Source: an uncultured Phycisphaerae bacterium (GTDB taxonomy: Bacteria; Planctomycetota; Phycisphaerae; UBA1845; PWPN01). From it: DNA of 64,000 bases. The translations under genes were made by a program, and so were the position numbers. Positions 32,881 through 64,000 of the stretch are shown here, one piece after another. The stretch is from contig CALLOB010000005.1 of NCBI GenBank assembly GCA_938005315.1, positions 19,413-83,412 on the forward strand, written 5' to 3'. The first letter of the stretch is position 1. The number at the start of each line of letters is the position of its first letter. Under the pieces are notes generated by a model that did not search any database, was not told where the DNA came from, and saw nothing but the letters and a program-made list of their open reading frames with translations.

Positions 32881-35800
32881 TCAACCCGCTTTGGCGGCGG
32901 CAAGACCGTGGGTTCGCAGCTCGGGCCAGCGGACCGGAACGACCGGACCTCGCCCCGTGGATTCCTCTGCGTCGGCCGCGCCGATCTTACGGGCGGGCGG
33001 GCGGCCGGCCATGTCGGCGGCACTGCGCGCGATCGCGGCCAGCAATTCCTTGACGGCGGATCCGGCCTCCGAGCCCCGATCGACCAGTTGCCGCAACTCC
33101 TCGGCCACCCCCTCGGCATGACCGACCAGGGCGTCAAGCTGCGCCCGGGATTGACGGCTCTGTTCCTCCAGGCGCCGCCGTGCGACGGCCTCGACCCGCG
33201 CGAGACGCTGAGCCCACTCCTGCTGGCGTTCCTCGGCCTGGCGGAGGCTGTCATGGACCGCATCGTTGCAGCGCTGCAATGCCTTGAGGATGCCCGCCGA
33301 CGACCGGGCCGAGGTCTTGAGCTGCTCAGCCTGAGCACGAACGGCGTCGGCGTTTTCCGACCAGCCCGCCAGCGCCTCGGTCACACGTCGAGCGGAATCC
33401 TCCAGTTGCGTCCCGACGGCCTGGGCCTGCTCGATCAGCGTCTCCAATCGATCGGCCTGGGCTAGAGCCTGTTCATTCAGCCGTCCGAGCCGGGCGGCCG
33501 CCTGCGGGGCGAGTTGGATCTTCACCGGCCGCGGGCGCTCGCGTTCCTCCAGCAGTCTGATGCGCTGGGTCAGGGTTTCAATGACCTCGACGAAGGTCTG
33601 GGCGTCGCTGGCTTGCCGTCCGCCGATCTCGCCCAGACGCGACTTCAGCCCCTCCAGCGCCTGAGTGATCGACTCCTGTGCCGCGCGGAATGTCGCCACC
33701 GGCGTGGAGGAGTTGGCCAGCTGCTCGACGCTGTCCCGCAGCGTTTGCCAGCGGGCCCCCAGGTCGCCGAGACGCTCTTCGTGGCGGCGACGGGTCTCCT
33801 GCAGGCGGGCCAGCAGCGCCCGCACATGCTGGTCGTGCCGTCTGCGGAGTTCGGCCACGTCCTCGTTGGACGCGGCGCGGGCCTCCAGGGCCTGCAGCGC
33901 CGCGCCGGTCTGGTCGCAGCGTCCGTTGACCTGGCGGATCGCCTCCTCCAGTTCCGACTTGCGGGCTGCCACCAGAGCCTCAAACCGCTCGCTGAAGCTC
34001 GCGACCAGGGATTCCAGTTGCGCGCGGCTCTCGCTGACGGCCGTTCTGACCTCCTCGGCGTCGCGGGCCTGCCGGGCGCGCAGCGCCTCCACAGCGACAC
34101 GATCGGCGGCGCGCTCGCGCAGTGCCTCCAGCTGCTCCTGAGTGCGCTCCCAGCGGGACAACGCGCCGTTCAGCCGCTCGTCCATCGACCGCCGGATGCC
34201 CTGCAGCTCCTCCAGCAGACCTTCCACGTCCTGCCGCTGACGGGCGACGAGTCCGGCGAGCTCCTGGCCGCCGGCCTGGGCCGTGCGGCTCAGGCGGTCG
34301 ATTTCCTCCTGGGCGGCGCGGCATAGCGCCTCGAGTTCGTCGAGCCGTCGCCTAGCGTCCTGCCGGCCGGCGGCGATCTCGGCCGTCAACCGCTCATCCA
34401 GCTCGCGCCTCTGGGCGTCCTGCTGTTCGCGGGCCGCCTCCAGGTCTTCCCGGCGGGCGAATTCCTCGGCCAGGACCGACAGCTGCTCCCGGATGTCGGC
34501 ATGCTGGCGGACCAGGCGCTGTCGCAGCCCGGACAGCTCGCAGGCCTCGTCGACAATCCGCTGAGCCAGTTCCTCGAACGCCCGACGCTGCTCTCCGGAA
34601 AGCTCCGCCGCCCGGGCATCGACCTGCCGGCGCATGTCCGCCAGCTCCAGGGCCTGTTGCGCGAGTCGGTTTTCCAGCTCGCCCAGCGCCCGTTCCTGCT
34701 CGTTGCGGACGTGCTCCAGATCGTGCAGGGAGGGCGTCTGCTCGCGCAGGGCGGCCACAGAGGCAGCCACCGCCTCGAGCCGCTCCCCGATATCCCGGGC
34801 CAGCGCCTGCCCGGCGGCCTCGCAACCGGCCACCCTGCTGCCCAGGCGCTCCAGCGTCTCGGCCTGGGCCGCCTGATCGCGCTGCTGCTGGGCCAGTTCC
34901 TTGCCCAGACGCTCCAGCGTCTCGGTCCGGGCCGTCTGATCGCACCGCTGCTGGGCCAGTTCCTCGCTCAGACGCTCCATGTCGCGATCCTGTCGCTCCT
35001 GGTTGAGGGCAAGCGATGCGATGCGGGCTTCGGTGTCCTCGCACTGGCGCTGGATCAGGGGCACCAGTTCAGCGACCTGTGCCTGATAGGCCTCCAGCTG
35101 CCCGACGGCCTCCTCGATGCGTTTCTCGAGCTGGCTCTCCAGTTCCTCGAGCGTCTCGGCACTGACGGCTTCCCGAGCCAGTCCGGCGACGCGCTGGCGG
35201 GTTTCGATCCAGTGTTGCTCGTTCTGCTCGAAGAGCCGCTGGAATTCCTCTCGCTGACGGGCGATTCGTTCCAGCAGCTCAGCCGTACCCTGCTGGTGCA
35301 GGCGTCGGATCTCGTCCAGGGCCTCGGCGGACGAACCGCTCCGGTCGACCCGCTCGATCTGCTGCTCGGCGGCCCGGCAGCGGGCCATGGTCTCGTCAAT
35401 GATCGCGTGCAGATCCTCGCGGCAGATGCCCAGTTCACTGCGGGCGGCGTTCCATCGTGACGCGACCTGGTCGACGATCTCCTCGATCTCCTCGCGCCTC
35501 GGCCGTTCACGGCCGAGCCGGGCCTGCAGCCCTGCGGCCGAGGACTCGATGATCTCCAGAGCCCGTTCGATCCGCCGATGGATGGCCTGCGGCTCCAGAT
35601 CCGGGAGGGTCGAAACCTTCGGGACGCCCCCCTCCACCCCGGCTTCCTGTTCAACACGCTCGGAAACCTGGACGACCTCGGGCCGGACCCCGTAGATGGC
35701 CTCGATGCGGGCCTGGGTCTGTTCGGGCGTCGGCGCGGCCGCCTGCTCCTCGGCCTCCAAAACCTGATCGAGGATGACGTTGTCCACGATCCGGCTGTCC

Positions 35801-36549
35801 AGCCCATAGGCGGTCAGCAGGGCGTTGTCGCAGATCTGGTTGATCACCCGCGGTATGCCCGCCGACGCCCGGAAGATCCGGGCCAGGGCGTGCGGCGTGA
35901 AGACCTCCGTCTCCGGCGGACAGCCGGCGACCGCCATGCGGCTGCGGACGTACTCGGCGGTCTGCTCGGCGGTCAGGGCCCGCAGGTGGAAACGCCGGAA
36001 AAGCCGCTGGTTGAGCTGTCTCATGTCCGACCGTGCGAAACGGTCGCGGAGCTCGGGCTGCCCGAGGATGCAGATCTGGAGGAGCTTGGCGTCGTCGGCC
36101 TCGAGATTGCCCAGCATCCGCAGCATCTCGAAGCTCTCGTCGGGCAGGTCCTGGGCCTCGTCGAGCACCACCACCACCAGCCGGTCGGCGGCGAACTCGC
36201 GGAGCAGGTACTGCTGGAGCGTCTCCACCAGTTGCAGATTGCTGCTCTCGGGCGGGCAGGGAAGGTTGAACTCGGCGCAGATCGCCGCCAGCAGCTGTCG
36301 GGCGGACAGCTGGTTCTGGGTGATGACCGCCACGCTGCCCAGCGGTTCGATCTGGCGGGCGAACATCCGGGCGACAAGCGTCTTGCCGGACCCCACCTCG
36401 CCGGTAATCAGCACGAATCCCTTGCGCTGCTGGCAGGCGTACTGCAGGGTGGCCAGGGCCTCTTCGTGGTCCGGGGTCCGGTAATAGAAGGTCGGATCCG
36501 GGGTGTTGTTGAACGGCGGCCGGTGCAGGCCGAAGTGAGCGCAGTACAT
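32881..36549 (-). CDS. ExeA-like AAA ATPase (PEP-CTERM-locus secretion-ATPase type) fused to a ~950-aa coiled-coil region
   Basis: ORF track, 1222 aa. The N-terminus is MYCAHFGLHRPPFNNTPDPTFYYRTPDHEEALATLQYA. Walker A is GEVGSGKT and Walker B is VVVVLDEAQ. GIPRVINQICDNALL is ExeA/GspA-like. From ~aa 290 onward the sequence is E/R/Q/A/L-rich and heptad-like to the C-terminus. RBS is GGAGAgcgatcc-ATG. No TM segment is visible. Confidence 0.8.
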   Translation of the reverse strand: MYCAHFGLHRPPFNNTPDPTFYYRTPDHEEALATLQYACQQRKGFVLITGEVGSGKTLVARMFARQIEPLGSVAVITQNQLSARQLLAAICAEFNLPCPPESSNLQLVETLQQYLLREFAADRLVVVVLDEAQDLPDESFEMLRMLGNLEADDAKLLQICILGQPELRDRFARSDMRQLNQRLFRRFHLRALTAEQTAEYVRSRMAVAGCPPETEVFTPHALARIFRASAGIPRVINQICDNALLTAYGLDSRIVDNVILDQVLEAEEQAAAPTPEQTQARIEAIYGVRPEVVQVSERVEQEAGVEGGVPKVSTLPDLEPQAIHRRIERALEIIESSAAGLQARLGRERPRREEIEEIVDQVASRWNAARSELGICREDLHAIIDETMARCRAAEQQIERVDRSGSSAEALDEIRRLHQQGTAELLERIARQREEFQRLFEQNEQHWIETRQRVAGLAREAVSAETLEELESQLEKRIEEAVGQLEAYQAQVAELVPLIQRQCEDTEARIASLALNQERQDRDMERLSEELAQQRCDQTARTETLERLGKELAQQQRDQAAQAETLERLGSRVAGCEAAGQALARDIGERLEAVAASVAALREQTPSLHDLEHVRNEQERALGELENRLAQQALELADMRRQVDARAAELSGEQRRAFEELAQRIVDEACELSGLRQRLVRQHADIREQLSVLAEEFARREDLEAAREQQDAQRRELDERLTAEIAAGRQDARRRLDELEALCRAAQEEIDRLSRTAQAGGQELAGLVARQRQDVEGLLEELQGIRRSMDERLNGALSRWERTQEQLEALRERAADRVAVEALRARQARDAEEVRTAVSESRAQLESLVASFSERFEALVAARKSELEEAIRQVNGRCDQTGAALQALEARAASNEDVAELRRRHDQHVRALLARLQETRRRHEERLGDLGARWQTLRDSVEQLANSSTPVATFRAAQESITQALEGLKSRLGEIGGRQASDAQTFVEVIETLTQRIRLLEERERPRPVKIQLAPQAAARLGRLNEQALAQADRLETLIEQAQAVGTQLEDSARRVTEALAGWSENADAVRAQAEQLKTSARSSAGILKALQRCNDAVHDSLRQAEERQQEWAQRLARVEAVARRRLEEQSRQSRAQLDALVGHAEGVAEELRQLVDRGSEAGSAVKELLAAIARSAADMAGRPPARKIGAADAEESTGRGPVVPVRWPELRTHGLAAAKAG
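34841..34980 (-). repeat. 63-nt (21-aa) tandem duplication inside the coiled-coil ORF
   Basis: The units at 34841-34903 and 34904-34966 differ at ~7 of 63 positions by my hand alignment, and a partial third unit follows. The protein units are EELAQQRCDQTARTETLERLG and KELAQQQRDQAAQAETLERLG. Confidence 0.8.
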
Positions 36550-36800: not shown

Positions 36801-37631
36801 ATGACGACGATGCGATACACCTCCTTGAGACGCTGGCGGAATCCGGCGCTGACGGCGCTGTGCGGACTGGCCGCCGCCGCGTCGGCCGGGTGCGCCAACA
36901 AGTACGACGACATGAAGGTCTTCATGCGGGCCCACGAGAACGAGGTCGCGGGCACGATCTACCGCCTGGAGCCCCCGGACGTGATCGTGATCAACTCGCC
37001 GACCTGCCCGGAGGTGGACAACGAGGTCCAGCGCATCCGGGCCGACGGCAAGATCTCCCTGGACCTGCTGGGCGAGGTCTACGTGGCCGGCATGAGCCCG
37101 GCCGAGATCGCGGCCAAGCTCCAGGAGCAGCTCGCCCGCTACTACGAGAACCCCCGCGTCGATGTGCGCGTGGCCGCCTACGAGAGCAAGAGCGTCTACG
37201 TATTCGGGCAGGTCGCCGTGCCCGGACCGCATCCCTTCACCGGCCGCGACACGCTGATGGACGTGCTGGCGCGGGCCCGACCGACCTTCATCGCCTGGGG
37301 GGCGCAGGTCAAGGTCATCCGTCCCAGCGCCCGTCCCGACGAACGCCGCGAGATCACCGTGGACGTCGACAGGATCGTCGAGACCGGCGACATGCGCGAC
37401 AACCTGCTCCTGCAGGAGGGCGATATCGTCTACGTCCCGCCGACCCCGCTGGGATGGGTCGGGCTGCGGGTCAACGAGGTGCTGTTCCCGGTCTCGCCGA
37501 TGCTGTCGGCCTACCAGATGCCGTACCACTTCCGGGACTCGACCGACCACTACCGTTACGGGTCGTACTACCACTACAAGCATGACGATGACGACAACAA
37601 AGGGGGATACCGGAGGCTGCTGTTCAGGTAG
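36801..37631 (+). CDS. Polysaccharide export (OPX, Wza-like) lipoprotein
   Basis: The lipobox is AAAASAGCA. The Poly_export-like part has YRLEPPDVIVI...IRADGKISLDLLGEVYVAGMSPAEIAAKLQEQL. The SLBB-like part has VYVFGQVAVPGPHPF...LQEGDIVYVP. The C-terminal tail is unusually Tyr/His-rich. Confidence 0.8.
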   Translation: MTTMRYTSLRRWRNPALTALCGLAAAASAGCANKYDDMKVFMRAHENEVAGTIYRLEPPDVIVINSPTCPEVDNEVQRIRADGKISLDLLGEVYVAGMSPAEIAAKLQEQLARYYENPRVDVRVAAYESKSVYVFGQVAVPGPHPFTGRDTLMDVLARARPTFIAWGAQVKVIRPSARPDERREITVDVDRIVETGDMRDNLLLQEGDIVYVPPTPLGWVGLRVNEVLFPVSPMLSAYQMPYHFRDSTDHYRYGSYYHYKHDDDDNKGGYRRLLFR

Positions 37632-37667
37632 GAGGCGGAAGGTCGGAGGCGATCGTGGGATGACCGC

Positions 37668-39446
37668 ATGAGTATACAACCCTCTCCCATCATCCTCGGA
37701 CCGCGGGTCGGAGCCCGTGCCGACGACGCTGAGAACGGCGACCTCGGCCGGGTGCTCGCCCGGGTGATGGCCATTCTGAGCCATCGCCGCTGGCTGTTCG
37801 CCATCCCGCTGCTGGCGGGCATGGCCTTTAGCCTGAGCGTCGCTCTGTGCCTGCCCCGCCAGTACCAGGTGAAGGCGATCATCGAGCGGCGCGACGACGA
37901 GGTCCTCACCAAGCTGGTCAGCTACAACTCCCCGACGCGCTTCGAGACCGTGCGCCGCTCCATCCGCATCGACCTGGCGGGCTACGAGGCCATTCGTCGG
38001 GCCGCCGACGAGCTCGGCCTGCTGGCCGGGCTGCCCCGCGACGCCAACGGCGCCCTGACGCCGCACGGCGAGGCCATGTGCCACGAGTTCCTGAGCAACC
38101 TGGCGTCGCAGCTCACGGTCGGGACCATCGACCAGAGCACCTACCTGGACCTCATCGAGATCCGCTATGCCGGCGACGATCCCGAGATGGCCGTCCGGCT
38201 GATCCGGCAACTCAAGGACAACTACATCGCCCAGACCCAGAACTTCATCACCGAAACCATGCGCGAATCGGAGCAGTTCTTCGAGGACAAGGTCCGCACC
38301 TGCCGCGAACAGGTCGCACGCATGCAGGTCGAACTGCTCCAGATCGAGGCCGAACAGCCCGGCATCTCGCCCAATCGACCCTCCGAGCTCGAGGACCTGA
38401 TCCGGCTGGAGATCAAGTCCATCGAGGAGCTCACCGGACGCAAGGCCCAGGTGGCCATGGACCTCTCCGGGCTCGAGGAAACCCTCCGTCAGCTGGCGGC
38501 CCGCGAACAGGCCGGCGATGCCAGCGGCGGACCGATGCCGGAACTGCTGCCTCTGACCGCAACCCACCTGATCCCCAATCCGCAGCGCTCCGCCCTGATG
38601 GCGGAAATGAACAATGTGCGTTCGCAGATCGCCGACGCCAAGTCCATGCGTCAGATGAAGGACGCCCATCCGACGGTGCTCAACCTCCGCGAGAAGCTCC
38701 GCCAGCTCCAGTCGGAGTTCGAACGGCTTCCGGAGATGATCGAGGCCCAGCCGGCGCCGCAGCCGGCTTCCGCGGACCGCTCCGGCCTGCCGCCGATCGT
38801 GGCCGCCCGCCAGCGGGTCGATCGCGAAATCGAGATCCTCCGCCGCAACCTGGCCAGCCTGGAGGACGCCCTTGCCGGGCATGTCGCCCGCCGCGCCGAA
38901 CTGGAGGCCCAGCGGCAGACCCTGCCCGACCGCCGCAAGGCCTACATGCAGCGGCTCGCGGCCCTGCGCGACGCCCAGGCCGAGGCCGAGATGTGGAGCG
39001 GGCACCTGGCCGACGTCCGCCAGCGTCTGACCGCCGCCGACGAGAACCGCGGCGTCAGGTTCTCCACCGTCGAGGAGCCGCGCGTCCCGATGCGCCCGCT
39101 CTCCCCGAAACTGTCGAGCGTGCTGCTGGTCTCGGCCGGAGTCGGAATGGCTTTGGGTGTCGCCGCCGTCTTCCTCCGGGAAGTCATGGATACCACCCTC
39201 CGGGACCCGATGCGTGTCTCCCAGATCCTCGGGATCCCGGTGCTCGAGATCGTCGGACGCATCAGCGTGACCGGTCGACGGCGCTTCTTCTCGCGCCGAG
39301 GGCTGCTGCCGGCCGTCGCCTGGGTTCAGGGAGTGTTGGTTCTCGTCCTCGGCGGCCTGTTCTACCTGAGCGTCGAGCGGCCGCGGACCTATGACGAGAT
39401 CCGGGAAAAGGCCAGCGGTGTCGTCGCCTCCCTGCGGAGGGACTGA
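37668..39446 (+). CDS. Polysaccharide chain-length determinant (PCP, GumC/Wzz-like)
   Basis: The N-terminal TM segment is WLFAIPLLAGMAFSLSVALCL. A long coiled periplasmic region follows, then the C-terminal TM segment LSSVLLVSAGVGMALGVAAVFL. It sits between the OPX and kinase-like genes. Confidence 0.75.
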   Translation: MSIQPSPIILGPRVGARADDAENGDLGRVLARVMAILSHRRWLFAIPLLAGMAFSLSVALCLPRQYQVKAIIERRDDEVLTKLVSYNSPTRFETVRRSIRIDLAGYEAIRRAADELGLLAGLPRDANGALTPHGEAMCHEFLSNLASQLTVGTIDQSTYLDLIEIRYAGDDPEMAVRLIRQLKDNYIAQTQNFITETMRESEQFFEDKVRTCREQVARMQVELLQIEAEQPGISPNRPSELEDLIRLEIKSIEELTGRKAQVAMDLSGLEETLRQLAAREQAGDASGGPMPELLPLTATHLIPNPQRSALMAEMNNVRSQIADAKSMRQMKDAHPTVLNLREKLRQLQSEFERLPEMIEAQPAPQPASADRSGLPPIVAARQRVDREIEILRRNLASLEDALAGHVARRAELEAQRQTLPDRRKAYMQRLAALRDAQAEAEMWSGHLADVRQRLTAADENRGVRFSTVEEPRVPMRPLSPKLSSVLLVSAGVGMALGVAAVFLREVMDTTLRDPMRVSQILGIPVLEIVGRISVTGRRRFFSRRGLLPAVAWVQGVLVLVLGGLFYLSVERPRTYDEIREKASGVVASLRRD

Positions 39447-39491
39447 CCGCACGGCGGACGGGCCTGCCGTTCCCCCACGGAAGCGTGAGCT

Positions 39492-40424
39492 ATGGGTCGC
39501 ATCGCAGAAGCACTGAAACGCGCACAGGAGGAGAGACTTCGAAGGCGCGAGGCCGCCGGGGCCGCCCCGGGTGGTCCGCCGGCCGGCGCCGCGCGAGAGG
39601 GCGTCCCGGACGCCGGAGCCCGCGCCCCCGACGCCGCAGCCTCCACGACCGCGAGGTTCGGGGCGCTCTTCGACCTCCCGGCCATGCCCCGGCCCTTCAT
39701 CGTCAGCGCCTCCCCGCTGCCGCCGGAATCCGTCGATCGCCGGCTGGTCAGCTTCCACGAACCGTCCCTGGTCGTATCCGAGAAGTACCGGGCCATCCGC
39801 ACGCGGCTCCTGACCGCCAATCCCGACGGCGGCTCGCGCATCTACGCCGTGGCCTCCAGCCTCCACGGAGAGGGCCGGTCGGTCAGCGTCGGCAACCTGG
39901 GATTCTGCTTCGCCGAGCTGCGCCATCTTCGCGTGGCCATGGTGGACTGCGATCTGCGCCGCCGGGGCCTCAGCGATCTGTTCTCCGCCGCCGACAAGCC
40001 CGGCCTGGTGGATGTGATCCGGGGCGACAGACCGCTCTCGGAGGTCTGCCTGCCCGTCGTGCGCGGCAACCTGCATCTCATTCCCTCGGGAGACCCGGCC
40101 GGCGAGAGCCCCAGCGACCTGTTCGGCGGCTCCCGGCTGGCCTCGATCTTCCAGGAGATCCGCGAGCGCTTCCACTACGCGCTGGTGGACACGCCACCCA
40201 TGGACACCTTCGCGGACATCGGCCTGGTGGCTCCACTCTGCCACTCGACGCTGATCGTCATCCGCCTGAACAGCACCCCGGAAGGCGTCCTGCGACGCTG
40301 CGTGCGGATGCTGCAGGCCAACCGGATTCCCATCGCCGGATCTATCCTGGTCGGCGAGTGCCACAACGGCCTGGCCCGGCCCGAGTCCAGCGATTACTAC
40401 AACCCCCTTGCGGCGGAGGCATGA
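39492..40424 (+). CDS. BY-kinase-like (CpsD/CapB/EpsG-type) P-loop protein with Lys-to-Arg Walker A
   Basis: Walker A' is VAMVDCDLRRRGL and Walker B is YALVDTPPM. The Walker A position reads SSLHGEGRSVS where the family has GEGK[ST]. The C-terminus has only a DYY pair. Confidence 0.7.
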   Translation: MGRIAEALKRAQEERLRRREAAGAAPGGPPAGAAREGVPDAGARAPDAAASTTARFGALFDLPAMPRPFIVSASPLPPESVDRRLVSFHEPSLVVSEKYRAIRTRLLTANPDGGSRIYAVASSLHGEGRSVSVGNLGFCFAELRHLRVAMVDCDLRRRGLSDLFSAADKPGLVDVIRGDRPLSEVCLPVVRGNLHLIPSGDPAGESPSDLFGGSRLASIFQEIRERFHYALVDTPPMDTFADIGLVAPLCHSTLIVIRLNSTPEGVLRRCVRMLQANRIPIAGSILVGECHNGLARPESSDYYNPLAAEA

Positions 40425-41491: not shown

Positions 41492-41554
41492 AGAGCCGGC
41501 CGACGCTGAAAAAACGCGGCGGAGCCTGTTTCGGCGGCCGCAACACGGACGAAC

Positions 41555-44101: not shown

Positions 44102-44139
44102 GAAGCGAGGCGGTTGCGGATGTCCAGGGAGGATGGCCC

Positions 44140-54735: not shown

Positions 54736-54799
54736 TATCGCCCGCCGGGCCCACGCAAACGCCGATCAGGCCTATTGGACGCGGTTGCGGCCGATATTC

Positions 54800-54852
54800 C
54801 TCAACTTTTCTGCGGACCGACCGATATCCCAATCGAGAGCGGTTATCGGAGT
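54800..54852 (+). promoter_or_regulatory. Three-block conserved intergenic element, copy A
   Basis: The element is CTCAACTT-N10-CGACCGATATCC-N12-GTTATCGG-AGT. The same blocks at the same spacing recur at 56561-56614. It ends 41 nt upstream of ATG 54893. Confidence 0.5.
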
Positions 54853-54892
54853 TCCCGCTCGCGGGCGCTGCCCGATACCCGAGGTCGATGCG

Positions 54893-56783: not shown

Positions 56784-58037
56784 ATGAGCCGCCCCATCGC
56801 CAGACCCTTCTTCGTCAGCGACGCGCCGCATTTTGGCGGGGCCGAGCGCTACATCGTGGCGATGTGCGCGGCGGCGCGCCGTCGGGGTTTGTCGCCGGGG
56901 ATCCTGTGGATCGACCGGGGCATCGCCGGTGAAGCGGTGATGGAGCGGCTGCGACAAGAGGGCGCGCCGGTGAAGGTTCTTGATGGGCGGCGAGGCGCCG
57001 GCACCGGACTGGTGCGCGGTTTTCTTTCGGCCCTCGATGAGACCGGGGCGGATGCACTGATCTTCAACGCCTGTGGACGGGCGGGATTCTGGCTGTTGCC
57101 GTGGGCGGCGCGGTGCAGAGGACTGCCGGCCGTATGGGTGCATCAGATGGTTGATGCCCGCGATCACCGCCGACTGCCGGCACGGTGGTGGAACGGCCGG
57201 ATGGAGGGCCTGCAGACCTGGCGTGTGCCGCAGGCTGTGCGGCACACGCTGGCCATGGCCGCCTGCCGGGCGGCGGTGACGCTGAACGAGGCCGACGGCG
57301 AGCGCATCGTCCGCTGGCTGCGGGCGCCGCGCGACCGGCTGCATGTCGTTCCGCACGGCGTGGACTGCACGGAGTACCGCTACGATGCCGCCGCGGGGAT
57401 GCGGCTTCGTGCCGCGCTGAAGCTGCCGCCGCCGGGGGCCGGGCCATTCGTGGTCGGCACCGCCGGCCGGCTGGTTCGCGGCAAGGGTGTGGACCTGCTG
57501 ATCCGTGCGGCCGCGCTTTTGAAGGATCGCGGCCTGGACGTGGAAGTGCTGGTGGCCGGCGACGGCGAGGCCAAAACCGAGCTGGCGGAGCTGGCGGCGG
57601 GGTTGGGCGTGGCGGGCCGGGTGCATTTCGCCGGTTTCATGGAGGACATGCCGGCCTTCTACAGCGCCCTGGACGCCTTCGCGCTGTGCAGCCTCACCGA
57701 GTCGTTCGGCCTGGCGATCGCCGAGGCCATGGCCTGCTGCCGGCCGGTGATCGCGACGCCCACGGCCGGGGCCTTGCGTCAGATCGAGCACGGCGTGAAC
57801 GGCCTGCTATTGCCGGGTTTCGACGCCGGCGCCCTGGCCGAGGCGATTGCGCGGCTGGCGGGCGATTCCCGCGCTGCCGCGCGCCTGGGCGAGGCCGGGC
57901 GCCGCAGCGTACTGCAACACTACAGCATCGACCTCACGCTCGAGCGGACGCTGCGAGCCTTGCGCGGCCGGGCCCGGGCCTGCAGCTGTCCGGTCGATCC
58001 GCCGCAGGTCGTCGCGGTCGGGGAGGAGCGAGCATGA
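56784..58037 (+). CDS. GT4-family glycosyltransferase
   Basis: Starts MSRPIARPFFVSDAPHFGGAERY. Contains GRLVRGKGVDLLI and SLTESFGLAIAEAMACCRPVIAT. The ORF-track N-terminal extension (56613) is trimmed. Confidence 0.8.
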   Translation: MSRPIARPFFVSDAPHFGGAERYIVAMCAAARRRGLSPGILWIDRGIAGEAVMERLRQEGAPVKVLDGRRGAGTGLVRGFLSALDETGADALIFNACGRAGFWLLPWAARCRGLPAVWVHQMVDARDHRRLPARWWNGRMEGLQTWRVPQAVRHTLAMAACRAAVTLNEADGERIVRWLRAPRDRLHVVPHGVDCTEYRYDAAAGMRLRAALKLPPPGAGPFVVGTAGRLVRGKGVDLLIRAAALLKDRGLDVEVLVAGDGEAKTELAELAAGLGVAGRVHFAGFMEDMPAFYSALDAFALCSLTESFGLAIAEAMACCRPVIATPTAGALRQIEHGVNGLLLPGFDAGALAEAIARLAGDSRAAARLGEAGRRSVLQHYSIDLTLERTLRALRGRARACSCPVDPPQVVAVGEERA

Positions 58038-59287
58038 GAATCCTTGTGCCCCTGCCCTTCGACCCTTCGGACACCGCTCACGGCCGGAATCTGCGGGTGG
58101 TGAACCTGCTGGCGCACATGAGCGGGCTGGCCGAGGTTCGCTGTCTTGTCGAGAACGCAGAGGTGGCCGCGCGGCTGGGGCCGATGCTTCCGTCGGCCCG
58201 GGTGGAAGCCGCGGAGGCGATGCTTTCCCGCTCCGACCGCCGGCTGCCGCGGGTTTCGCGTGTCGGGGCGTACTTCGGGAGCTCGCCGGAGCTGGTGGCG
58301 GCGACGGCGGCCGCCGCCAGACAGGCCGAGGCAGTGTTGGGCTTCGATCTGCCCTCGATCAACGCGGTGCTGGCGGCCCGGTCGGTCGCGGACCGTCCGC
58401 GGCTGATCCTGGACGTCATTGACGACCCATGGCAGACGTGGCGGAGCGGTTGTCGGTCGGAGCGTCTGGGGCTGACGGGCTTGAAGACGGCGTTGTGCGT
58501 GCGGCTGGCTCGGCGGTTTCTGCTCGCGCGGCTCGATGCCGTCGTGGCTATCTCGCCGCAGGATGCCGCAAGCCTGGGCCGGGCATGCGGAAAACGCGTC
58601 CACGTCGTGCCTAACGGGGTGGATCCGCAGCCCCCAACATGTCTCACGGAACCGCGCGAGGCCATGGTGATCTTCACCGGAGCGATGGATTTCGGGCCTA
58701 ACGAGGAGGCGGCGTGTTTTCTGGCCAGGCAGCTGTGGCCGGGCATCCGGCGGGCGGCCGCGGAACGTGATGCCGGTCGGGCCGCTTCGCTGGAGCTGGT
58801 GATCGCCGGGTCGAATCCGACCGCGGCGGTGCGGGCGCTGGCCGGGATTCCCGGCGTGCGGGTCACGGGCCGGGTGCCGGATCTCGGCGCGTGGCTGCGG
58901 CGGGCCTGCGTGGCGACAGCCCCGATGCGCTCGGGCACGGGGATGAAGAACAAGGTGCTGGAGGCCCTGGCCGCGGCGTGCCCGGTGGTGGCGACCAGCG
59001 CCGGCGCGGCGGGCCTGCCGCAGGGAAAGGAGCATGGTCTGCTCGTAGAGGACGACTCGAATCGCCTGGCCGAGGTCATCGGGGCACTGGCCGCGGATCC
59101 CGAGCGGGCGCGGCGGCTGGGCCGGGCGGGATGGCGGACGGTCCGCGACCGGTACGCCTGGGCGGACTGTGCTCGTCTGATGATCGAAACCGTCGGCGAG
59201 CTGGTGCGCCGGGTCCGCACGGCGCCGGCCGCGCCGGCCGGCCCTCGAACGGGCGAACAGGAGGCGCTGCCCCATGCCGCTTCGTAG
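58034..59287 (+). CDS. GT4-family glycosyltransferase
   Basis: The ATG overlaps the previous stop (ATGA) after GGGAGGAGcgagc. Starts MRILVPLPFDPSDTAHGRNLR. Contains FTGAMDFGPNEEAACFL and APMRSGTGMKNKVLEALAAACPVV. Confidence 0.75.
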   Translation: MRILVPLPFDPSDTAHGRNLRVVNLLAHMSGLAEVRCLVENAEVAARLGPMLPSARVEAAEAMLSRSDRRLPRVSRVGAYFGSSPELVAATAAAARQAEAVLGFDLPSINAVLAARSVADRPRLILDVIDDPWQTWRSGCRSERLGLTGLKTALCVRLARRFLLARLDAVVAISPQDAASLGRACGKRVHVVPNGVDPQPPTCLTEPREAMVIFTGAMDFGPNEEAACFLARQLWPGIRRAAAERDAGRAASLELVIAGSNPTAAVRALAGIPGVRVTGRVPDLGAWLRRACVATAPMRSGTGMKNKVLEALAAACPVVATSAGAAGLPQGKEHGLLVEDDSNRLAEVIGALAADPERARRLGRAGWRTVRDRYAWADCARLMIETVGELVRRVRTAPAAPAGPRTGEQEALPHAAS

Positions 59288-60635
59288 TGTCGCGTTTCTG
59301 CTCTACTTCTTCGGCAGCTGCGGCGCCGCGTTCATCTACCCGATGGTCGGGGTGGTCTGCTACGTGGTGCTCTACCAGGTCTACCCCCAGACCACGTGGT
59401 GGGGCCAGCCGCTGGACGTCTACGGCATCCGCTACTCGTTCGTCTGCGGGCTGTGCCTGACGGTGGGCATGCTGCTGAACATCAAGCGGCTGCCGGCCGG
59501 CCGGCAGATCATGCACCCGGTGGAGATCGGCACGGTCTGCGTCTTTCTGGCGATGCTGCTGTCCTCGCTGATCGGCGCCAGCCGCAACCACTTCACGGAG
59601 CTGTACCTGGACAAGATGGCCAAGGTGGTGGTGTTTCTGCTGGTGATGTCGCGGGTGGTGGTGACCCGGGACCGGCTCTGGATCATGGTGCTGACGTTCA
59701 CGGCGATGGCCTGGTACCTCGGCCACGAGGCCACCAACGCCCCGCCGGGCGCGTTTCACCGCAACCGCGTGGACGGCATCGGCGGCCCGGACTTCCGCGA
59801 GGCCTCGTCGCTGGCGATCCACCTGAGTTCGCTGTTGCCGTTCGTGGCCATCACGCTGAGCGACCGGCGGCTTTACGTCCGGCTTTTCGCGGTCGCCGCC
59901 GCGGCCTACGCGGTCAACGGCATTCTGCTGTGCCGGGCGCGGTCGGCGTTCCTGGGAGCCGTGATCGCCGCTGGCGTGGCCCTTTTCTACGTGCCGCGCC
60001 GTTACCGCAGCCTGCTGATCGGGGCGATGATCCTGGGAACCGCGGGCATGCTGGTGCTCAGCGACGACTGGTTCTGGGACCGCATGGTGACCATCGCCAG
60101 CCCGTCGGAGGAGCGCGACCAGTCGGCGGCGGTGCGGCTGATCGTGTGGCGGGCCGCCTGGGACATGTTCCGCGATTACCCGATGGGCATCGGCGTGGGG
60201 CAGTTCCAGTGGCAGATCCGGCAGTACAGCGAGGAGCTCAACTGGATCCGGCGCGACGCGCACAACACCTACATCCTCTGCGCCTGCGAGCTGGGCATCT
60301 TCGGCCTGATCGCCTACCTGGCCACGCTGGGCGGCGGCTGGTGGACGCTCAACCACGCCATCCGGCGTGCCAGGCAGTGGCTGCCGACGCCGGGGAGATA
60401 CGAGCTGATCATCTTCGCATCGCGCATCAGCCTGGTGGTGTACGCGATCTCGGGGCTGTTCGTCAGCCGTCTGTACACCGAGGCCGCCTGGTGGCTGATC
60501 ATGCTGCCGGTCTGCATCCACCGGGCGGTCGAAAGCGAGATCCGCGCCGAGGCCCGCGCCGAAGAGCAGGTTTACGCGCGGCTTGCGCGGTGGCTGACGA
60601 ACCCGGAGGCGCCCGGGGCGGCGCCGGCCTACTGA
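59274..60635 (+). CDS. O-antigen ligase/polymerase-like (Wzy_C) polytopic membrane protein
   Basis: About 10-12 hydrophobic spans are visible. The Wzy_C-type motif is RDAHNTYILCACELGIFGLIAY. It resembles the O-glycosylation-ligase type found in exosortase loci. Confidence 0.75.
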   Translation: MPLRSVAFLLYFFGSCGAAFIYPMVGVVCYVVLYQVYPQTTWWGQPLDVYGIRYSFVCGLCLTVGMLLNIKRLPAGRQIMHPVEIGTVCVFLAMLLSSLIGASRNHFTELYLDKMAKVVVFLLVMSRVVVTRDRLWIMVLTFTAMAWYLGHEATNAPPGAFHRNRVDGIGGPDFREASSLAIHLSSLLPFVAITLSDRRLYVRLFAVAAAAYAVNGILLCRARSAFLGAVIAAGVALFYVPRRYRSLLIGAMILGTAGMLVLSDDWFWDRMVTIASPSEERDQSAAVRLIVWRAAWDMFRDYPMGIGVGQFQWQIRQYSEELNWIRRDAHNTYILCACELGIFGLIAYLATLGGGWWTLNHAIRRARQWLPTPGRYELIIFASRISLVVYAISGLFVSRLYTEAAWWLIMLPVCIHRAVESEIRAEARAEEQVYARLARWLTNPEAPGAAPAY

Positions 60636-60651
60636 CCCCAGGAGTCCTGCG

Positions 60652-61704
60652 TTGCGGAGCAGCGCCGCCACAACCGAACCCCGGGAAATCCGCGCGGCGG
60701 CGATCCGCCGGGTGAACCGGAGCTTCCACGCCCGGGCCCAGGCGTGCTTCGATCGCGAGCACCGCCGGCGGCACCGGGCCGAACGGGGCTTCTGGGAGCA
60801 GGTCGCCCTCCGGCTGCTCCGCGAGCGCCGGGCCGGCGCGGGGCCGGCCGGCCGCGGCCTGGTGGTCGTGGACCTGGCCTGCGGGACAGGCTTCGCCGGC
60901 CGCGTGCTGGGCCGCCGGCTGGGGCCGGGCGTCCGGCTTCTTTCCCTGGACCTCACCGAGGAGGCCATCCGCACGGTGCGGAATAAGTGGCATCACGATC
61001 CGGTTCCGGACGGGCCGCGGCTGATCGGCAGTGCCGCCGACGCCGCGGCTCTGCCCCTGGCCGACGCGTCGGTGGACCTGGTGGCGATGAACGCCGCCCT
61101 GCACCATATGCCGGCGCCGGCGGATGTGCTGGCCGAGGTCGACCGCGTGCTGCGGCCCGGGGGGCTGTTCGCGCTGGGTTTCGAGCCCAATGCGGCCCAT
61201 TTCCGGAACACCGCCCTGCGCGGCCTGTCGGCCGGCCTCGACCGGCTGGCGTGGTACCTCGATTTCAGACAGAACCGCCGCCGCCTGAGGCGTCTGGGGC
61301 ACAGCCTTGGACTGGTCTGCCCGGGCGAAAAAGCCCGCCGGACGCCCGACGGGCCGGATACGGCGGATCGGATCGGCGGCGTGGAGGTGGTCGAGGAGGA
61401 TCTGCCCCGGGAGGTTCTGGAACTGCTCGACCCTCACGCCAGGGGAGCCGGCGGGCGGGCGGGTTTCGATCCGCATGAGCTGCTGGCGGGATTGCCTCGT
61501 GCCTACGAGGTGATTCTCATCCGCTCGAGCGACTATCTGGGCGACGCGGCCCGGCGGCTGCCGCCGCTGCGAGGGTTGGCGGACGCCGTCATGGGGGCGC
61601 TATGGCCGGGCCAGGGTGTCCTTTTCTCCTGGCTGGTGCGCAAGCCCGGCGTCGGCCGGGAGGGATGCCCGAACGCGCCGATCGGCGGCAGGGCCCGGGC
61701 GTGA
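60652..61704 (+). CDS. Class I SAM-dependent methyltransferase
   Basis: The TTG start follows GGAGtcctgcg. Contains VVVDLACGTGFAGRVL, VDLVAMNAALHHM and LRPGGLFALGFEPN. Confidence 0.7.
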   Translation: MRSSAATTEPREIRAAAIRRVNRSFHARAQACFDREHRRRHRAERGFWEQVALRLLRERRAGAGPAGRGLVVVDLACGTGFAGRVLGRRLGPGVRLLSLDLTEEAIRTVRNKWHHDPVPDGPRLIGSAADAAALPLADASVDLVAMNAALHHMPAPADVLAEVDRVLRPGGLFALGFEPNAAHFRNTALRGLSAGLDRLAWYLDFRQNRRRLRRLGHSLGLVCPGEKARRTPDGPDTADRIGGVEVVEEDLPREVLELLDPHARGAGGRAGFDPHELLAGLPRAYEVILIRSSDYLGDAARRLPPLRGLADAVMGALWPGQGVLFSWLVRKPGVGREGCPNAPIGGRARA

Positions 61705-61719
61705 CCAGGGGTGCGATGC

Positions 61720-63678
61720 GTGTGCGGGATCGCGGGACTGGTACGGTTGGACGGGCTGACGCCGGCGGAGCGGGGCGTCGGGGCGCGCATGGCCCGGACG
61801 CTGCGCCACCGCGGACCGGACGGCCTGGGCGCCTACGAGGACGCCTGCGCGAGCCTGGGCCATACCCGGCTGAGCATCGTGGACCTCTCCAACGGCCGTC
61901 AGCCGATGGCCAACGAGGACGGCACGGTGTGGGTCACGTTCAACGGCGAAATCCACAACCACCTCGAGCTGGCCGAGGGTCTGCGTGCCCGGGGCCACGT
62001 GCTGCGGACCCGCTGCGACACGGAGGTGCTCGTCCACCTCTACGAGGAGTACGGCGAGGACTTCGTCGAGCGGCTCAACGGGATGTTCGCCGTCGCATTG
62101 TGGGACGTCCGCCGGCACCGGCTGATACTGGCCCGTGACCGGCTGGGCATCAAACCGCTGTACTGGCACGACGACGGCCACCGGATCGTCTTCGGCTCGG
62201 AGCTCAAGGCCCTGCTGGTGCCCGGCGACATCTCCCGAGAGGTGTGTCCGGAGGCCCTGCACGACTTTCTGACCTTCGGCCACGTCCAGAGCCCGCGGAC
62301 GATCTACCGCGGCGTGCGACAGCTGGAGCCCGGCGAACTGCTGTGCCGCACCACCGCCGGACTGCGTCGGCGGCGCTACTGGGACCTACCGGTCGGGCAG
62401 GCGGACACGGAGGTCGCGGCGGGGGACGAAACCCGCTGGATCGACCGCTTCGCGGCCTTGTTCGAGCATGCGGTCGGTCTGCGCATGGCGGCGGACGTGC
62501 CGCTGGGCGTGTTTCTCAGCGGCGGCGTGGACTCGGCCGCGGTGACCGCGGCGATGTGTCGCCGGGCGGACGGGCCGGTGCTGACGCGAACCGTCGGATT
62601 CGACGAGAGCGATCATGACGAACGTCGCGCGGCCGCGGATCTGGCCGGGCGACTGGGCACCGATCACCGCGAGATCGTCGTCCGGCCCGACGCCGTCGCG
62701 GCCCTGGAACGCCTGGCCGGGTGCTTCGACGAGCCCTTCGCCGATCCCTGTGCCGTACCCATGTACCACCTGGCCGCCGCCGCCCGGCAGAGCGTGACCG
62801 TCGCTCTCTCCGGTGACGGCGGCGACGAGCTGCTGGCAGGCTACCGCCGCTACCGTTTCGACCTGGCCGAGAGTCGTCTTCGCCGGGCGATGCCGGCGTG
62901 GCTGCGGTGGGCCGCCGCCGGCGCCGGGCGGCATTGGCCTTCCGGCGGGCGTCTGCCGCAGGCGTTGCGCGCCGGCCGCACGCTGGAAAACCTGGCCCGC
63001 GACGACATCGCCGCCCACCTGCGGAGCACGGCGATCGTGGGCGGCACCCTCCCGCAAACGGTACTCCGGCCGGAATGGCGCCGGGCGGGTCTGGCGGACC
63101 CCTTCGACAAGGGGCGGGCCTGCTTCGACCGTGCCGCGGGAGCCGCGCTGCTCAACCGGCTGCTGTACGTCGATATCAAGACGCTTATGGCGGACGGCAT
63201 TCTGACCAAGGTGGACCGGGCCTCGATGGCCGTCGCCCTGGAGGTGCGTCCGCCGCTGCTGGACCACCGGCTGGTGGAGCTCTGCGCGGCGATGCCCGAT
63301 GATCTGAAACTGCAACGCGGCCGCGGCAAGATCGTGCTGCGCCGTATGCTGGCCCGTTGGCTGGGCGATGCGGTGGCCGCGCGTCCCAAGCGCGGCTTCG
63401 ACGTGCCGGTCGACGTCTGGCTTCGCGGGCCGTTGCGACCGATGGTGACCGACCTGCTGTTGACGGCGGACGCCCGTTGCCTGGAGTGGCTGGATCGCCG
63501 TGCGGTCGCGCGACTCGCCGAGGAGCACGCCCGCGGCCGGCGCTCCGGCGGCCTGGCCCTCTGGACGCTGCTCAACCTGGAGCTGTGGGCCCGCAGTGCC
63601 GCGACGTGCAGCCGCCCGTCGAGCGAAGCTGCGGCAGCGGGCCGGCAGGGGAAGGAGAACCTCTTATGCGCGTGCTGA
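61720..63678 (+). CDS. asnB: Asparagine synthase (glutamine-hydrolysing)-type amidotransferase
   Basis: I set the start to GTG 61720 so that the product begins M-CGIAGLV, with the Ntn Cys at position 2. Contains HRGPDG, NGEIHNH, RDRLGIKPLYW and the PP-loop FLSGGVDSA. Confidence 0.85.
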   Translation: MCGIAGLVRLDGLTPAERGVGARMARTLRHRGPDGLGAYEDACASLGHTRLSIVDLSNGRQPMANEDGTVWVTFNGEIHNHLELAEGLRARGHVLRTRCDTEVLVHLYEEYGEDFVERLNGMFAVALWDVRRHRLILARDRLGIKPLYWHDDGHRIVFGSELKALLVPGDISREVCPEALHDFLTFGHVQSPRTIYRGVRQLEPGELLCRTTAGLRRRRYWDLPVGQADTEVAAGDETRWIDRFAALFEHAVGLRMAADVPLGVFLSGGVDSAAVTAAMCRRADGPVLTRTVGFDESDHDERRAAADLAGRLGTDHREIVVRPDAVAALERLAGCFDEPFADPCAVPMYHLAAAARQSVTVALSGDGGDELLAGYRRYRFDLAESRLRRAMPAWLRWAAAGAGRHWPSGGRLPQALRAGRTLENLARDDIAAHLRSTAIVGGTLPQTVLRPEWRRAGLADPFDKGRACFDRAAGAALLNRLLYVDIKTLMADGILTKVDRASMAVALEVRPPLLDHRLVELCAAMPDDLKLQRGRGKIVLRRMLARWLGDAVAARPKRGFDVPVDVWLRGPLRPMVTDLLLTADARCLEWLDRRAVARLAEEHARGRRSGGLALWTLLNLELWARSAATCSRPSSEAAAAGRQGKENLLCAC

Positions 63679-64000
63679 GCGCCACACTCTGCTACCCGGC
63701 GGCTGACGCCCCTGAGGAGGGGATTTTCGTCCAGCGGCGTCTGGTCGCCCTGGCCCGCCGCTATCCGGTGGACGTGCGGGTGGTGGCCCCGCGGCTGCGA
63801 TGTCCGCTGCTGCGCAGCCGCCGACCGCAGGACCCGGTCGGGGAACCGCTGAAGGCCTGTTACCCCTCGATGCCCAGCGTGCCGCTGCTGGGCCGCCTGA
63901 CCGACGGGATGGCCTTTGCCCGTTGCCTTCAGCGCGCGATCCTTGCCGGAGGCGAATGGCGACCCGACCTGCTGGACGCTCACTTCGAGTACCCCGACGG
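63666..64000 (+). CDS. GT4-family glycosyltransferase (5' part; continues beyond window)
   Basis: ATG 63666 overlaps the asnB end. The sequence MRVLSATLCYPAADAPEEGIFVQRRLVALARRYPVDVRVVAP is typical of a GT4 N-terminus. There is no stop before the window end. Confidence 0.6.
   Translation, partial: MRVLSATLCYPAADAPEEGIFVQRRLVALARRYPVDVRVVAPRLRCPLLRSRRPQDPVGEPLKACYPSMPSVPLLGRLTDGMAFARCLQRAILAGGEWRPDLLDAHFEYPD

Follow-up and report, generated by a model that had tools for sequence, protein, structure and literature searches.

In the psc1 loci of Rubrivivax gelatinosus and Thauera, the tabulated gene order is wza, the genes for a polysaccharide co-polymerase (PCP), a kinase, an ATPase, a deacetylase, a FemAB protein and GT1, followed by asnB, glycosyltransferase (GT) genes, capK and wzy, and these loci also contain wzxC and a gene for an exosortase-like membrane protein (PMC3684757). 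In Aquincola, epsB2 lies with prsK/prsR apart from the main large exopolysaccharide (EPS) cluster (PMC9850573), indicating that split XrtA-type systems are normal. Here, we analyzed a 64-kb window, that is, the whole stretch of 64,000 nucleotides from contig CALLOB010000005.1 of an uncultured Phycisphaerae bacterium. A surface-polysaccharide locus of ~38.5 kb, extending from position 32881 to ~71388 in window-equivalent coordinates, has its left ~31 kb in the window. The backbone of this locus is probably the Phycisphaerae counterpart of XrtA/PEP-CTERM-type EPS loci, taken together with the export mechanism proposed below and an exosortase encoded in trans. In the papers covered by our full-text literature search, no polysaccharide locus of the exosortase/PEP-CTERM type was described for Phycisphaerae. 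The EPS gene set of the XrtA type, which has been studied in Proteobacteria until now, would have a conserved planctomycete counterpart.

Results

Family assignments of the locus backbone

The window has ~70% G+C, and raw lists of its open reading frames (ORFs) are therefore crowded with spurious frames. NCBIfam and Pfam hidden Markov models (HMMs) were applied to every product called by third-position GC bias (GC3). In total, ~82 kb of the source genome was inspected. GC3-guided calling and HMM scans recovered the gene set that an initial annotation, made from the sequence alone, had placed between 32881 and 64000, with 23 closely packed genes, 22 of them co-oriented from 36.8 kb and one divergent (32881-36549). 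The stp1, Wzt, Wzy_C, AsnB, PCP and bacterial tyrosine kinase (BY-kinase)-like products are exact public protein calls on a 158,322-bp NCBI/ENA contig, and the OPX (outer-membrane polysaccharide export), FemAB and deacetylase starts as called had no match among those calls. A look-up of the 847-aa product of 2128-4671, in the left part of the window, found no recorded protein. The backbone runs in the order divergent ATPase, OPX, PCP, BY-kinase-like protein, FemAB, stp1, GTs, Wzy_C, AsnB, GT, CapK-like protein and EpsB_2.

The initial annotation had assigned the accessory genes to the subfamilies of PEP-CTERM loci. This held for the FemAB and stp1 products but not for the deacetylase, and the matches of six other backbone products stayed below the curated cutoffs. 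The FemAB-family protein (40421-41491 (+)), which belongs to a family of aminoacyl-transferases, passes the XrtA/PEP-CTERM-associated model TIGR03019 (302.1 bits against a cutoff of 260.35) and also matches Acetyltransf_6 and FemAB. Likewise, the stp1 GT (41555-42859 (+)) passes the PEP-CTERM/XrtA-system model TIGR03087 (339.6 against 316.65 bits). The NodB-type polysaccharide deacetylase (44950-46059 (+)) matches Polysacc_deac_1 with 58.7 bits and did not match the PEP-CTERM-locus model TIGR03006.

For the remaining left-hand products, the best NCBIfam matches are all PEP-CTERM subfamily models. The 1222-aa AAA_22 ATPase (32881-36549 (-)), whose divergent gene marks the left locus edge, best matches TIGR03015 pepcterm_ATPase (228 bits, cutoff 324.5) over model positions 1-263 of 269. 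Its N-terminal 264 aa form an AAA_22/ExeA-like domain (AAA_22, 92 bits), which is followed by a long coiled-coil tail with SMC-like matches. This ATPase family is common in Phycisphaerae, and its gene is likewise divergent to the OPX gene in the related loci L103 and L107. The short OPX lipoprotein (36801-37631 (+)) has a lipobox-like N-terminus, matches Poly_export (62.7 bits) and SLBB_2, and best matches TIGR03027 pepcterm_export (86.5 bits, cutoff 180). The 592-aa PCP of the GumC/ChnLen type (37668-39446 (+)) contains 2-3 transmembrane (TM) segments, with TIGR03007 pepcterm_ChnLen as its best match (101 bits, cutoff 279) and a weak GNVR match. The BY-kinase-like ATPase, encoded by a separate gene (39492-40424 (+)), best matches TIGR03018 pepcterm_TyrKin (100.5 bits, cutoff 231). 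Its Walker A motif reads GEGRS, with Arg replacing Lys, and its C-terminus has DYY only and no Tyr cluster. The same Lys-to-Arg change occurs in L017, and L023 keeps the Lys (KEGKT). The Arg in the window and in L017 indicates that the BY-kinase-like protein may not be a working kinase, and judging from the motif it may be a pseudo-kinase scaffold. In the left flank of L107 (19788-23741), we also noted a Y_phosphatase3-type protein, a possible phosphatase counterpart to the BY-kinase-like protein, and a second ABC_tran/ABC2_membrane pair with an O-methyltransferase.

Further right, the Wzy_C-family polytopic membrane protein (59274-60635 (+)), a ligase or polymerase, has 10-11 hydrophobic segments, a Wzy_C match of 75.2 bits and TIGR03097 PEP_O_lig_1 as its sole NCBIfam match (110 bits, cutoff 188). 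Sequence comparison with solved structures found no relative, and its sequence does not separate the ligase and polymerase roles. Two AsnB-type amidotransferases had been annotated initially, of which one is intact. This glutamine-dependent enzyme (61720-63678 (+)) best matches TIGR03108 eps_aminotran_1 (635 bits, cutoff 817) and Asn_synthase (322 bits), and correction of its start to the GTG at 61720 gives an MCGIAG N-terminus. The second, a 644-aa AsnB-like protein (50776-52710 (+)), is degenerate: its N-terminus (MVFD...) lacks the Cys2 nucleophile, as in its relatives, its synthetase domain is weak (Asn_synthase, 39.6 bits), and its GATase_7 match (25.1 bits) barely exceeds the cutoff of 25.

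The priming transferase and the right half of the locus

A 14.5-kb Logan contig (L001), found via the AsnB protein and 99.98% identical to window positions 58652-64000, carries the locus past the window end. There, the full 418-aa GT4, of which only the 5' end lies in the window (63666-64000 (+), cut by the window end), is followed by a CapK/PaaK-like adenylating ligase (window-equivalent 64919-66316), a 539-aa polytopic membrane protein (66313-67932; L001 7662-9281), the fourth methyltransferase (MTase) of the locus (67983-68678 (-)), a 271-aa lipoprotein-like protein (68812-69627 (-); L001 10161-10976) and the 505-aa EpsB_2 priming transferase with a Bac_transf domain (69871-71388; L001 11220-12737 (+)). 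EpsB_2 passes both the XrtA/PEP-CTERM model TIGR03013 (395.1 bits against a cutoff of 393.35) and TIGR03025 (388 against 295.55). A polyprenyl-phosphate sugar-1-P transferase therefore begins 5.9 kb past the window end. After it, L001 encodes a GDSL protein and an oxidoreductase up to window-equivalent 73.1 kb. The initial annotation had held that an exosortase, a Wzx flippase and an initiating transferase immediately downstream would mark a conventional XrtA-type locus; of the three, the transferase was found, but neither an exosortase nor Wzx was seen in the ~9 kb downstream.

A scan for EpsB_2 in a genome collection yielded 14 loci, 13 of which belong to metagenome-assembled genomes (MAGs) of Phycisphaerae or Planctomycetota, the fourteenth being from Haliscomenobacter at 32% identity. 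The right half of the locus is kept in order at 50-68% amino-acid identity in L005, L007, L008, L010, L011, L015 and L099, namely stp1-like GT, Wzy_C, (MTase), AsnB, GT4, CapK, the 271-aa gene on the opposite strand and EpsB_2. In related loci that reach past EpsB_2, unrelated genes follow, indicating that the locus ends at this gene.

Neither the 539-aa nor the 271-aa protein has a Pfam or NCBIfam match. The 539-aa protein, whose gene has homologues in no loci but those of the closest relatives (L003 and L097), contains 9 hydrophobic segments and an SDD motif after TM1, and from this topology and motif alone one idea is that it might be a GT-C enzyme. In the left part of the window, a 234-aa polyprenyl-phosphate-type GT2 (AglJ/ArnC/PpgS-like, 16529-17233) adjoins WecB, the two spanning 16529-18369 (+). 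This GT2 and the 539-aa protein could form a pair for periplasmic lipid-sugar glycosylation. The 271-aa gene lies divergently and directly upstream of EpsB_2 in L001, L003-L005, L007-L015, L097 and L099, in all of these, and the pair persists without the rest of the locus in L004, L009 and L012-L014. This persistent pairing suggests that the 271-aa protein is a dedicated partner or regulator of EpsB_2, and we flag this conserved lipoprotein-like partner of the priming transferase for annotation.

The ABC exporter as a facultative cassette

The Wzm ABC-2 permease (44098-44940 (+)) has an ABC2_membrane match (54.9 bits) and a TM profile with 6 TM segments. The Wzt ATPase (47269-48573 (+)) matches ABC_tran (68.5 bits) and carries a C-terminal Wzt_C domain (50.6 bits against a cutoff of 30.4). 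Among NCBIfam models, it best matches those of the TagH and galactan Wzt/RfbE types. Its best PDB match (E = 1e-64) is chain 8dku/7k2t, deposited as 'ABC transporter', which we take to be the Aquifex aeolicus WzmWzt exporter. Both genes of the exporter initially annotated are thus present but not adjacent, since the deacetylase and the S-adenosylmethionine (SAM)-dependent methyltransferase MT1 (46265-47272 (+); Methyltransf_25/23/11) lie between them.

To place the exporter in a wider context, metagenomes were scanned for Wzt, yielding 80 loci. The ~20 closest of these (57-94% identity) show synteny across the middle of the locus, and L017, L023 and L032 also have some or all of the PCP-kinase-FemAB-stp1 block upstream. 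The architecture is repeated from the divergent ATPase into AsnB in a second genome (L105/L107, 96-kb contig). In the distant L038 (Wzt 44% identical), a TIGR03006 deacetylase (387 bits against a cutoff of 276), FemAB and PEP_O_lig_1 all pass their cutoffs and flank the Wzm/Wzt pair. The claim that an ABC exporter, PCP, OPX and exosortase-locus accessory genes share one co-oriented block therefore stands, and the arrangement recurs in L017, L023, L032 and L105/L107 and, distantly, in L038.

The exporter genes occupy one junction, directly after the GT-B glycosyltransferase GT409 (42872-44101 (+); Glyco_trans_1_4, distantly TuaH-like) and before a GT2 (48567-49520 (+); Glycos_transf_2, 92.5 bits); in relatives, GT409 is followed by either Wzm or GT2. 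The window, L017, L023, L032 and L105 have Wzm-MT-Wzt between these two genes. The same junction lacks it in L103/L104 (399-kb contig) and L106, where the order is ATPase, OPX-PCP-kinase-FemAB-stp1-GT-GT2-GT4-...-AsnB-like-GT9-like-MTase. By these sequence comparisons, the three genes Wzm-MT-Wzt form a facultative cassette with a fixed site, added on to the backbone. More than 15 loci keep the Wzm-MT1-Wzt order. Of the ~20 close loci, nearly all have an MTase gene between or next to those of the transporter; none was detected in L034 and L037, and a GT2 intervenes in L033. A deacetylase between Wzm and the MTase is confined to the closest relatives (L017 and L023) and is absent from most other cassettes. 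We infer that MT1 is a candidate chain-end capping enzyme.

Several genes vary along with the cassette or its surroundings. In L018-L020 and L026/L028, the cassette-GT core is preceded by sialic-acid synthesis or 2-oxoacid oxidoreductase genes; in L018 (1299-4431), these belong to the CTP_transf_3 (cytidylyltransferase), NeuB and UDP-GlcNAc 2-epimerase families, and such gene families suggest that the polymer variant of the L018-L020 lineage contains a sialic-acid-type sugar. A B12-binding/Met_asp_mut_E-like gene (661-678 aa) lies between GT4 and the AsnB-like gene in L104 (6027-8012) and L106 (5991-8027), that is, in cassette-less and not in cassette-bearing loci. In addition, a B12-radical-SAM gene was found downstream of EpsB_2 in L005, with same-sized, unscanned ORFs at that position in L010 and L011, and a PduO-type adenosyltransferase gene lies inside the L038 cluster.

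For the cassette-bearing genomes, we tentatively propose a hybrid route, which we consider possible but rather doubtful. A polymer primed by the phosphoglycosyl transferase (PGT) EpsB_2, built in the cytoplasm and methyl-capped would be exported by a cap-reading Wzm/Wzt, which would replace Wzx, and then be handled by the PCP-2b, BY-kinase-like and OPX proteins and the Wzy_C ligase. Alternatively, the locus may make two products, an explanation that falls well short of probable but survives better than the others considered below. The cassette and some adjacent GTs and MTases would then produce a separate capped O-antigen-like or glycoprotein glycan, which may share the EpsB_2 primer and use Wzy_C as its ligase, while the EPS would be flipped by an unlinked Wzx, polymerized and secreted via PCP/OPX. 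The modules are indeed separable, as no OPX/PCP/FemAB block precedes the cassette and GT core in L018-L020 and L026/L028, and L103/L104 and L106 have the OPX/PCP block and the GT core without the cassette. Moreover, a complete O-antigen-style route can be made up of a PGT, a Wzt_C-bearing ABC exporter and a ligase of the Wzy_C family, and the proteobacterial psc1 locus has its own wzxC (PMC3684757). However, there is a single Wzy_C gene and a single PGT for the two supposed pathways, and no Wzx was seen in any inspected flank. Cassette-bearing and cassette-less loci also have the GT core in common, and apart from the MTase no set of GTs is visibly tied to the cassette.

Exosortase, Wzx and cargo

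The initial annotation had reported no exosortase, Wzx or priming transferase, and for the whole 64 kb the Pfam/NCBIfam scans and a TM census agree. In the TM/hydropathy census, only three polytopic coding ORFs, Lnt, Wzm and Wzy_C, were found. The scan of 1-32 kb covered the GC3-supported ORFs apart from two short ones (1926-2336 and 24415-24720) and assigned families to a metallo-beta-lactamase-fold protein, MTHFR, a Mg-chelatase-like ATPase, a peroxiredoxin, a GH3-family protein, the polyprenyl-phosphate GT2, WecB, a YfiO/TPR lipoprotein, LptE, FtsH, GalE, Lnt, HldE and an aldo-keto reductase. Several ORFs in this part had no family match, and the remainder are housekeeping/envelope genes.

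Among the scanned ORFs of the window, L001 and L097, no exosortase (TIGR03109/TIGR02602) was matched, and in the same sequences and the related-locus flanks Wzx (MOP) had no polytopic candidate and no Polysacc_synt-type match. Neither gene was seen in the ~9 kb after the window (L001) or in the flanks of ~10 related loci, and in L097, a 97% relative, the 10 kb past the transferase contains no exosortase or Wzx Pfam family. Six unannotated polytopic ORFs in the flanks were considered as hidden exosortases and rejected, four being CstA, an amino-acid permease, a prepilin peptidase and an SNF symporter, and two having no Pfam match; among the unassigned products, those of 310 aa (L097), 499 aa (L004) and 392 aa (L014) had no exosortase match. 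PrsK/PrsR/PrsT were not found among the scanned ORFs of the window or flanks, and the TPR protein at 18501-19763 matches only Pfam YfiO (an outer-membrane lipoprotein family) and TPR models. Since no exosortase or Wzx was seen in any inspected flank, both are probably encoded elsewhere. For the exosortase, this is the most likely arrangement, and Wzx may likewise be encoded at another site in the genome.

A PEP-CTERM motif search of the 64-kb window found none, and a lone 'APEP' was discarded as spurious because it has no TM or basic tail. We also noted a 170-aa ORF (7473-7985 (-)) that ends in ...VPAICGGGACQAAGLSLLGLALMRRRGGRIR, where a Cys/Gly motif is followed by a hydrophobic helix and then by clustered Arg residues; this tail is laid out like MYXO-CTERM or another C-terminal sorting tag, and the ORF has no Pfam/NCBIfam match and modest GC3 support (0.73). 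A related genome, in turn, has a PEP-CTERM protein gene inside its homologous locus (L104:12354-12974 (+)). The product has a signal peptide and a tail of ...TPEPASLALLGLGGLAFLRRRRGR, and this 206-aa secreted protein ends in ...YPTPEPASLALLGLGGLAFLRRRRGR, a textbook PEP-CTERM tail. Together with an opposite 312-aa gene (13194-14132 (-)), it lies between the homologues of MT2 and the 503-aa GT, an insertion site that equals the 157-bp gap at 54735-54893 of the window and fits the transcription-unit boundary initially proposed there. The cargo gene in the L104 locus implies an exosortase in that lineage.

These data bear on whether the locus serves protein sorting at all. The cassette-bearing Phycisphaerae might have kept the XrtA-accessory set and lost every exosortase, leaving a locus purely for polysaccharide synthesis. 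Such a loss would account for the missing exosortase and PEP-CTERM genes in the window, the 9 kb downstream, the further 10 kb of the 97% relative and the related-locus flanks. We nevertheless consider it improbable, because a bona fide PEP-CTERM cargo gene stands in a relative's homologous locus (L104), XrtA-type components are known to be split between loci (Aquincola, PMC9850573), and the inspected part of this genome amounts to ~82 kb.

Far less support remains for the initial reading, an ABC-dependent capsule-like pathway without polyprenyl-phosphate priming that had recruited exosortase-locus enzymes, which we now regard as very improbable. The ABC exporter, PCP and OPX genes are co-oriented and kept together in several genomes, and no PGT lies inside the window. 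However, an EpsB_2-type PGT 5.9 kb past the window closes the locus, and EpsB_2 forms the right end of the conserved block in each relative that spans it, or occurs elsewhere as the EpsB_2/271-aa pair (L004, L009 and L012-L014). The locus is also not capsule-like in the Kps sense. Its PCP is of the ChnLen/GumC type, not KpsE-like, and is accompanied by a separate kinase-like ATPase, its Wzt, which carries a Wzt_C domain, belongs to the O-antigen/TagH type, and the scans gave no KpsC/KpsS-type linker family. The supposed recruitment looks reversed, as the backbone is XrtA-type with the psc1 order and the cassette is facultative, not backbone. Finally, a conventional XrtA locus with an exosortase and Wzx immediately downstream of the window is scarcely credible and is refuted for the inspected range, because, although the priming transferase did turn up there, the genes to window-equivalent 73.1 kb, including the 539-aa membrane protein, had no exosortase or Wzx HMM match, neither Pfam family occurs in the next 10 kb of the 97% relative, and unrelated genes follow EpsB_2 in related loci.

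Other glycosyltransferases, methyltransferases and locus edges

Nine GTs had been counted within the window and are confirmed, the ninth being the product of 52707-53678 (+), a 323-aa protein of a family that is almost confined to Phycisphaerae MAGs and annotated there as 'hypothetical'. Its own sequence has no Pfam or NCBIfam match. However, PF01075 (Glyco_transf_9) is carried by 13 of the 75 clusters of its homologues, and a search of the family profile against PDB returned only WaaC heptosyltransferase chains (E = 0.004). In addition, WaaC, TibC and other GT9 structures ranked top against its AlphaFold2 model (pLDDT 92.6), with modest TM-scores of 0.44-0.47. By profile and predicted structure, this product is likely a GT9-like GT-B glycosyltransferase, which would provide a Phycisphaerae-specific 'hypothetical' family with a likely role and fold. 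In view of the GT9 fold, it is of note that HldE, a bifunctional enzyme of the ADP-heptose pathway, is encoded at 29345-30877 (-), 2 kb from the locus edge, and scores 431 bits against NF008454, below the cutoff of 521 bits. HldE and the GT9-like enzyme together give a hint of heptose in the polymer.

The other GTs include a GT4 at 49521-50786 (+) (Glyco_trans_1_4, 137 bits), whose best NCBIfam match is stp2 TIGR03088 (112 bits, below the cutoff of 409). The divergent GT4-like protein of 503 aa (54893-56404 (+)) has weak Glyco_transf_4 and stp3 matches and is kept in relatives, where Pfam assigns Glyco_trans_4_4. Two more GTs follow, a GT4 at 56784-58037 (+) (Glycos_transf_1, 129.7 bits) and an stp1-like GT at 58034-59287 (+) with TIGR03087 as its best match (158 bits, cutoff 317). 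Pfam also confirmed three SAM methyltransferases within the window, MT1 and, in addition, MT2 (53680-54735 (+); Methyltransf_23, 97 bits) and MT3 (60652-61704 (+); Methyltransf_11, 67.8 bits).

All the start/stop overlaps reported initially are present (ATGA at 40421, 47269 and 58034; GTGA at 52707; TGAATG at 49518), and one more, GTGA at 44098, was found at the Wzm start. The four transcription units proposed initially have gap sizes as their only basis. A promoter/terminator scan gave no promoter-like sites and 5 terminator-like sites against 5.3 expected by chance, so that it neither supports nor opposes the boundaries.

At the left edge, a tRNA-Val(CAC) gene (32337-32410 (+)) lies in the 770-bp gap between the aldo-keto reductase gene and the 3' end of the ATPase gene, and it was the sole match in Rfam and tRNA scans of the window. 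PhoD and/or ValRS genes flank the ATPase gene in L103 and L107, indicating that the left flank is not conserved. The G+C content is 0.67-0.72 on either side of the locus edge; composition thus gives no sign of recent transfer, and a recent genomic island was discarded on this ground.

Discussion

The following mechanism is based on known family roles, namely priming by PGTs, cap recognition by Wzt_C as in E. coli O8/O9a, and the functions of Wzy_C and PCP-2/OPX proteins. EpsB_2 would prime undecaprenyl phosphate, and about ten GTs would then elongate the chain at the cytoplasmic face, the GT9-like one possibly being fed by the ADP-heptose pathway of HldE. The chain would be modified by the deacetylase, FemAB, AsnB, Cys2-less AsnB-like, CapK-like and methyltransferase enzymes. 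In cassette-bearing genomes, the cassette MTase would add a methyl cap that is read by Wzt_C, and Wzm/Wzt would carry the lipid-linked chain across the inner membrane. The Wzy_C protein would ligate or polymerize the chain at the periplasmic face, and PCP and OPX would pass the polymer through the outer membrane. An exosortase for PEP-CTERM cargo would be encoded elsewhere in the genome.

Several observations weigh against this interpretation. Six PEP-CTERM-subfamily best matches (ATPase, OPX, PCP, kinase, Wzy_C and AsnB) lie below curated cutoffs, the deacetylase has no TIGR03006 match, and in the Walker A motif of the BY-kinase-like protein Lys is replaced by Arg. No exosortase, PEP-CTERM cargo or PrsK/R/T was found in the ~82 kb inspected of this genome. 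The locus is otherwise intact in cassette-less relatives, which shows that it does not need Wzm/Wzt in cis. The occurrence of the cassette and GT core without the preceding OPX/PCP/FemAB block (L018-L020 and L026/L028) shows that the cassette is separable from that block, and a coupling of the ABC exporter to PCP/OPX is therefore putative. To our knowledge, no characterized system couples a Wzm/Wzt exporter to a PCP-2b/BY-kinase/OPX translocon.

Nothing in this locus breaks known rules yet. If the hybrid route were true, it would break the textbook separation of ABC-dependent and Wzy-dependent pathways, and the cassette would be an exchangeable module for inner-membrane export, combined with a GT core common to all. 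The presence or absence of the cassette is a natural comparison for asking whether one lipid-linked polymer can be served by both ABC exporters and Wzx, and it also bears on whether an ABC exporter can feed a PCP-2/OPX translocon.

Among known systems, the locus is most like the proteobacterial XrtA/PEP-CTERM EPS loci (psc1 of Rubrivivax/Thauera, 'zooglan' of Zoogloea, Aquincola and the methanolan eps locus of Methylobacillus), with the same components in largely the same order. The shared components are OPX, PCP, the kinase-like ATPase, the ExeA-like ATPase, the deacetylase, FemAB, stp-type GT4s, AsnB, the CapK-like protein, Wzy_C and EpsB_2. The likeness extends to FemAB, stp1 and EpsB_2 passing curated cutoffs and to the PEP-CTERM protein in a relative's locus. 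In contrast to those loci, no XrtA/EpsI, PrsK/PrsR/PrsT or Wzx was seen in cis here, most subfamily matches are below cutoff, the ATPase has a ~950-aa coiled-coil tail, and the host is a planctomycete. Moreover, the locus has four methyltransferases, a GT9-like GT and the Wzm-MT-Wzt cassette in addition.

With ABC-dependent O-antigen export (E. coli O8/O9a; Aquifex aeolicus WzmWzt), the locus shares Wzm, a Wzt with Wzt_C and a closely linked MTase gene, as well as an enzyme priming undecaprenyl phosphate and a Wzy_C/WaaL-family protein in the same locus. It differs in that the transporter stands among PCP-2b, BY-kinase-like and OPX genes and exosortase-locus enzymes, and in that a large PGT rather than WecA would be the priming enzyme; here, the MTase is a putative capping enzyme, and the cap a putative ligand of Wzt_C. 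The likeness to group 2/3 capsule systems (KpsMT-KpsE-KpsD) is one on paper, consisting of an ABC exporter, a PCP and an OPX protein, whereas the PCP here belongs to the ChnLen/GumC type rather than KpsE and has a kinase-like ATPase encoded separately, Wzt is not of the KpsT type, and a PGT is present. No family of the KpsC/KpsS-type (beta-Kdo) linker GTs turned up in the HMM scans. As to the Wzx/Wzy pathway, the locus has a Wzy_C protein that may be a ligase or a polymerase, a PCP, a kinase-like ATPase with the GEGRS motif and an OPX, and Wzx was not seen in the window, L001, L097 or the related-locus flanks.

In the enterococcal Epa and lactococcal rhamnan-PSP systems, one locus joins an ABC exporter for one chain with Wzy-type machinery, and extracytoplasmic glycosylation proceeds via a polyprenyl-phosphate GT2 and a polytopic membrane transferase, with no OPX/PCP. 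As an analogy only, the ArnC/AglJ-like GT2 (16529-17233) and the 539-aa polytopic protein are the corresponding pair here, in a cell envelope and with accessory enzymes that differ from those of the two Gram-positive systems.

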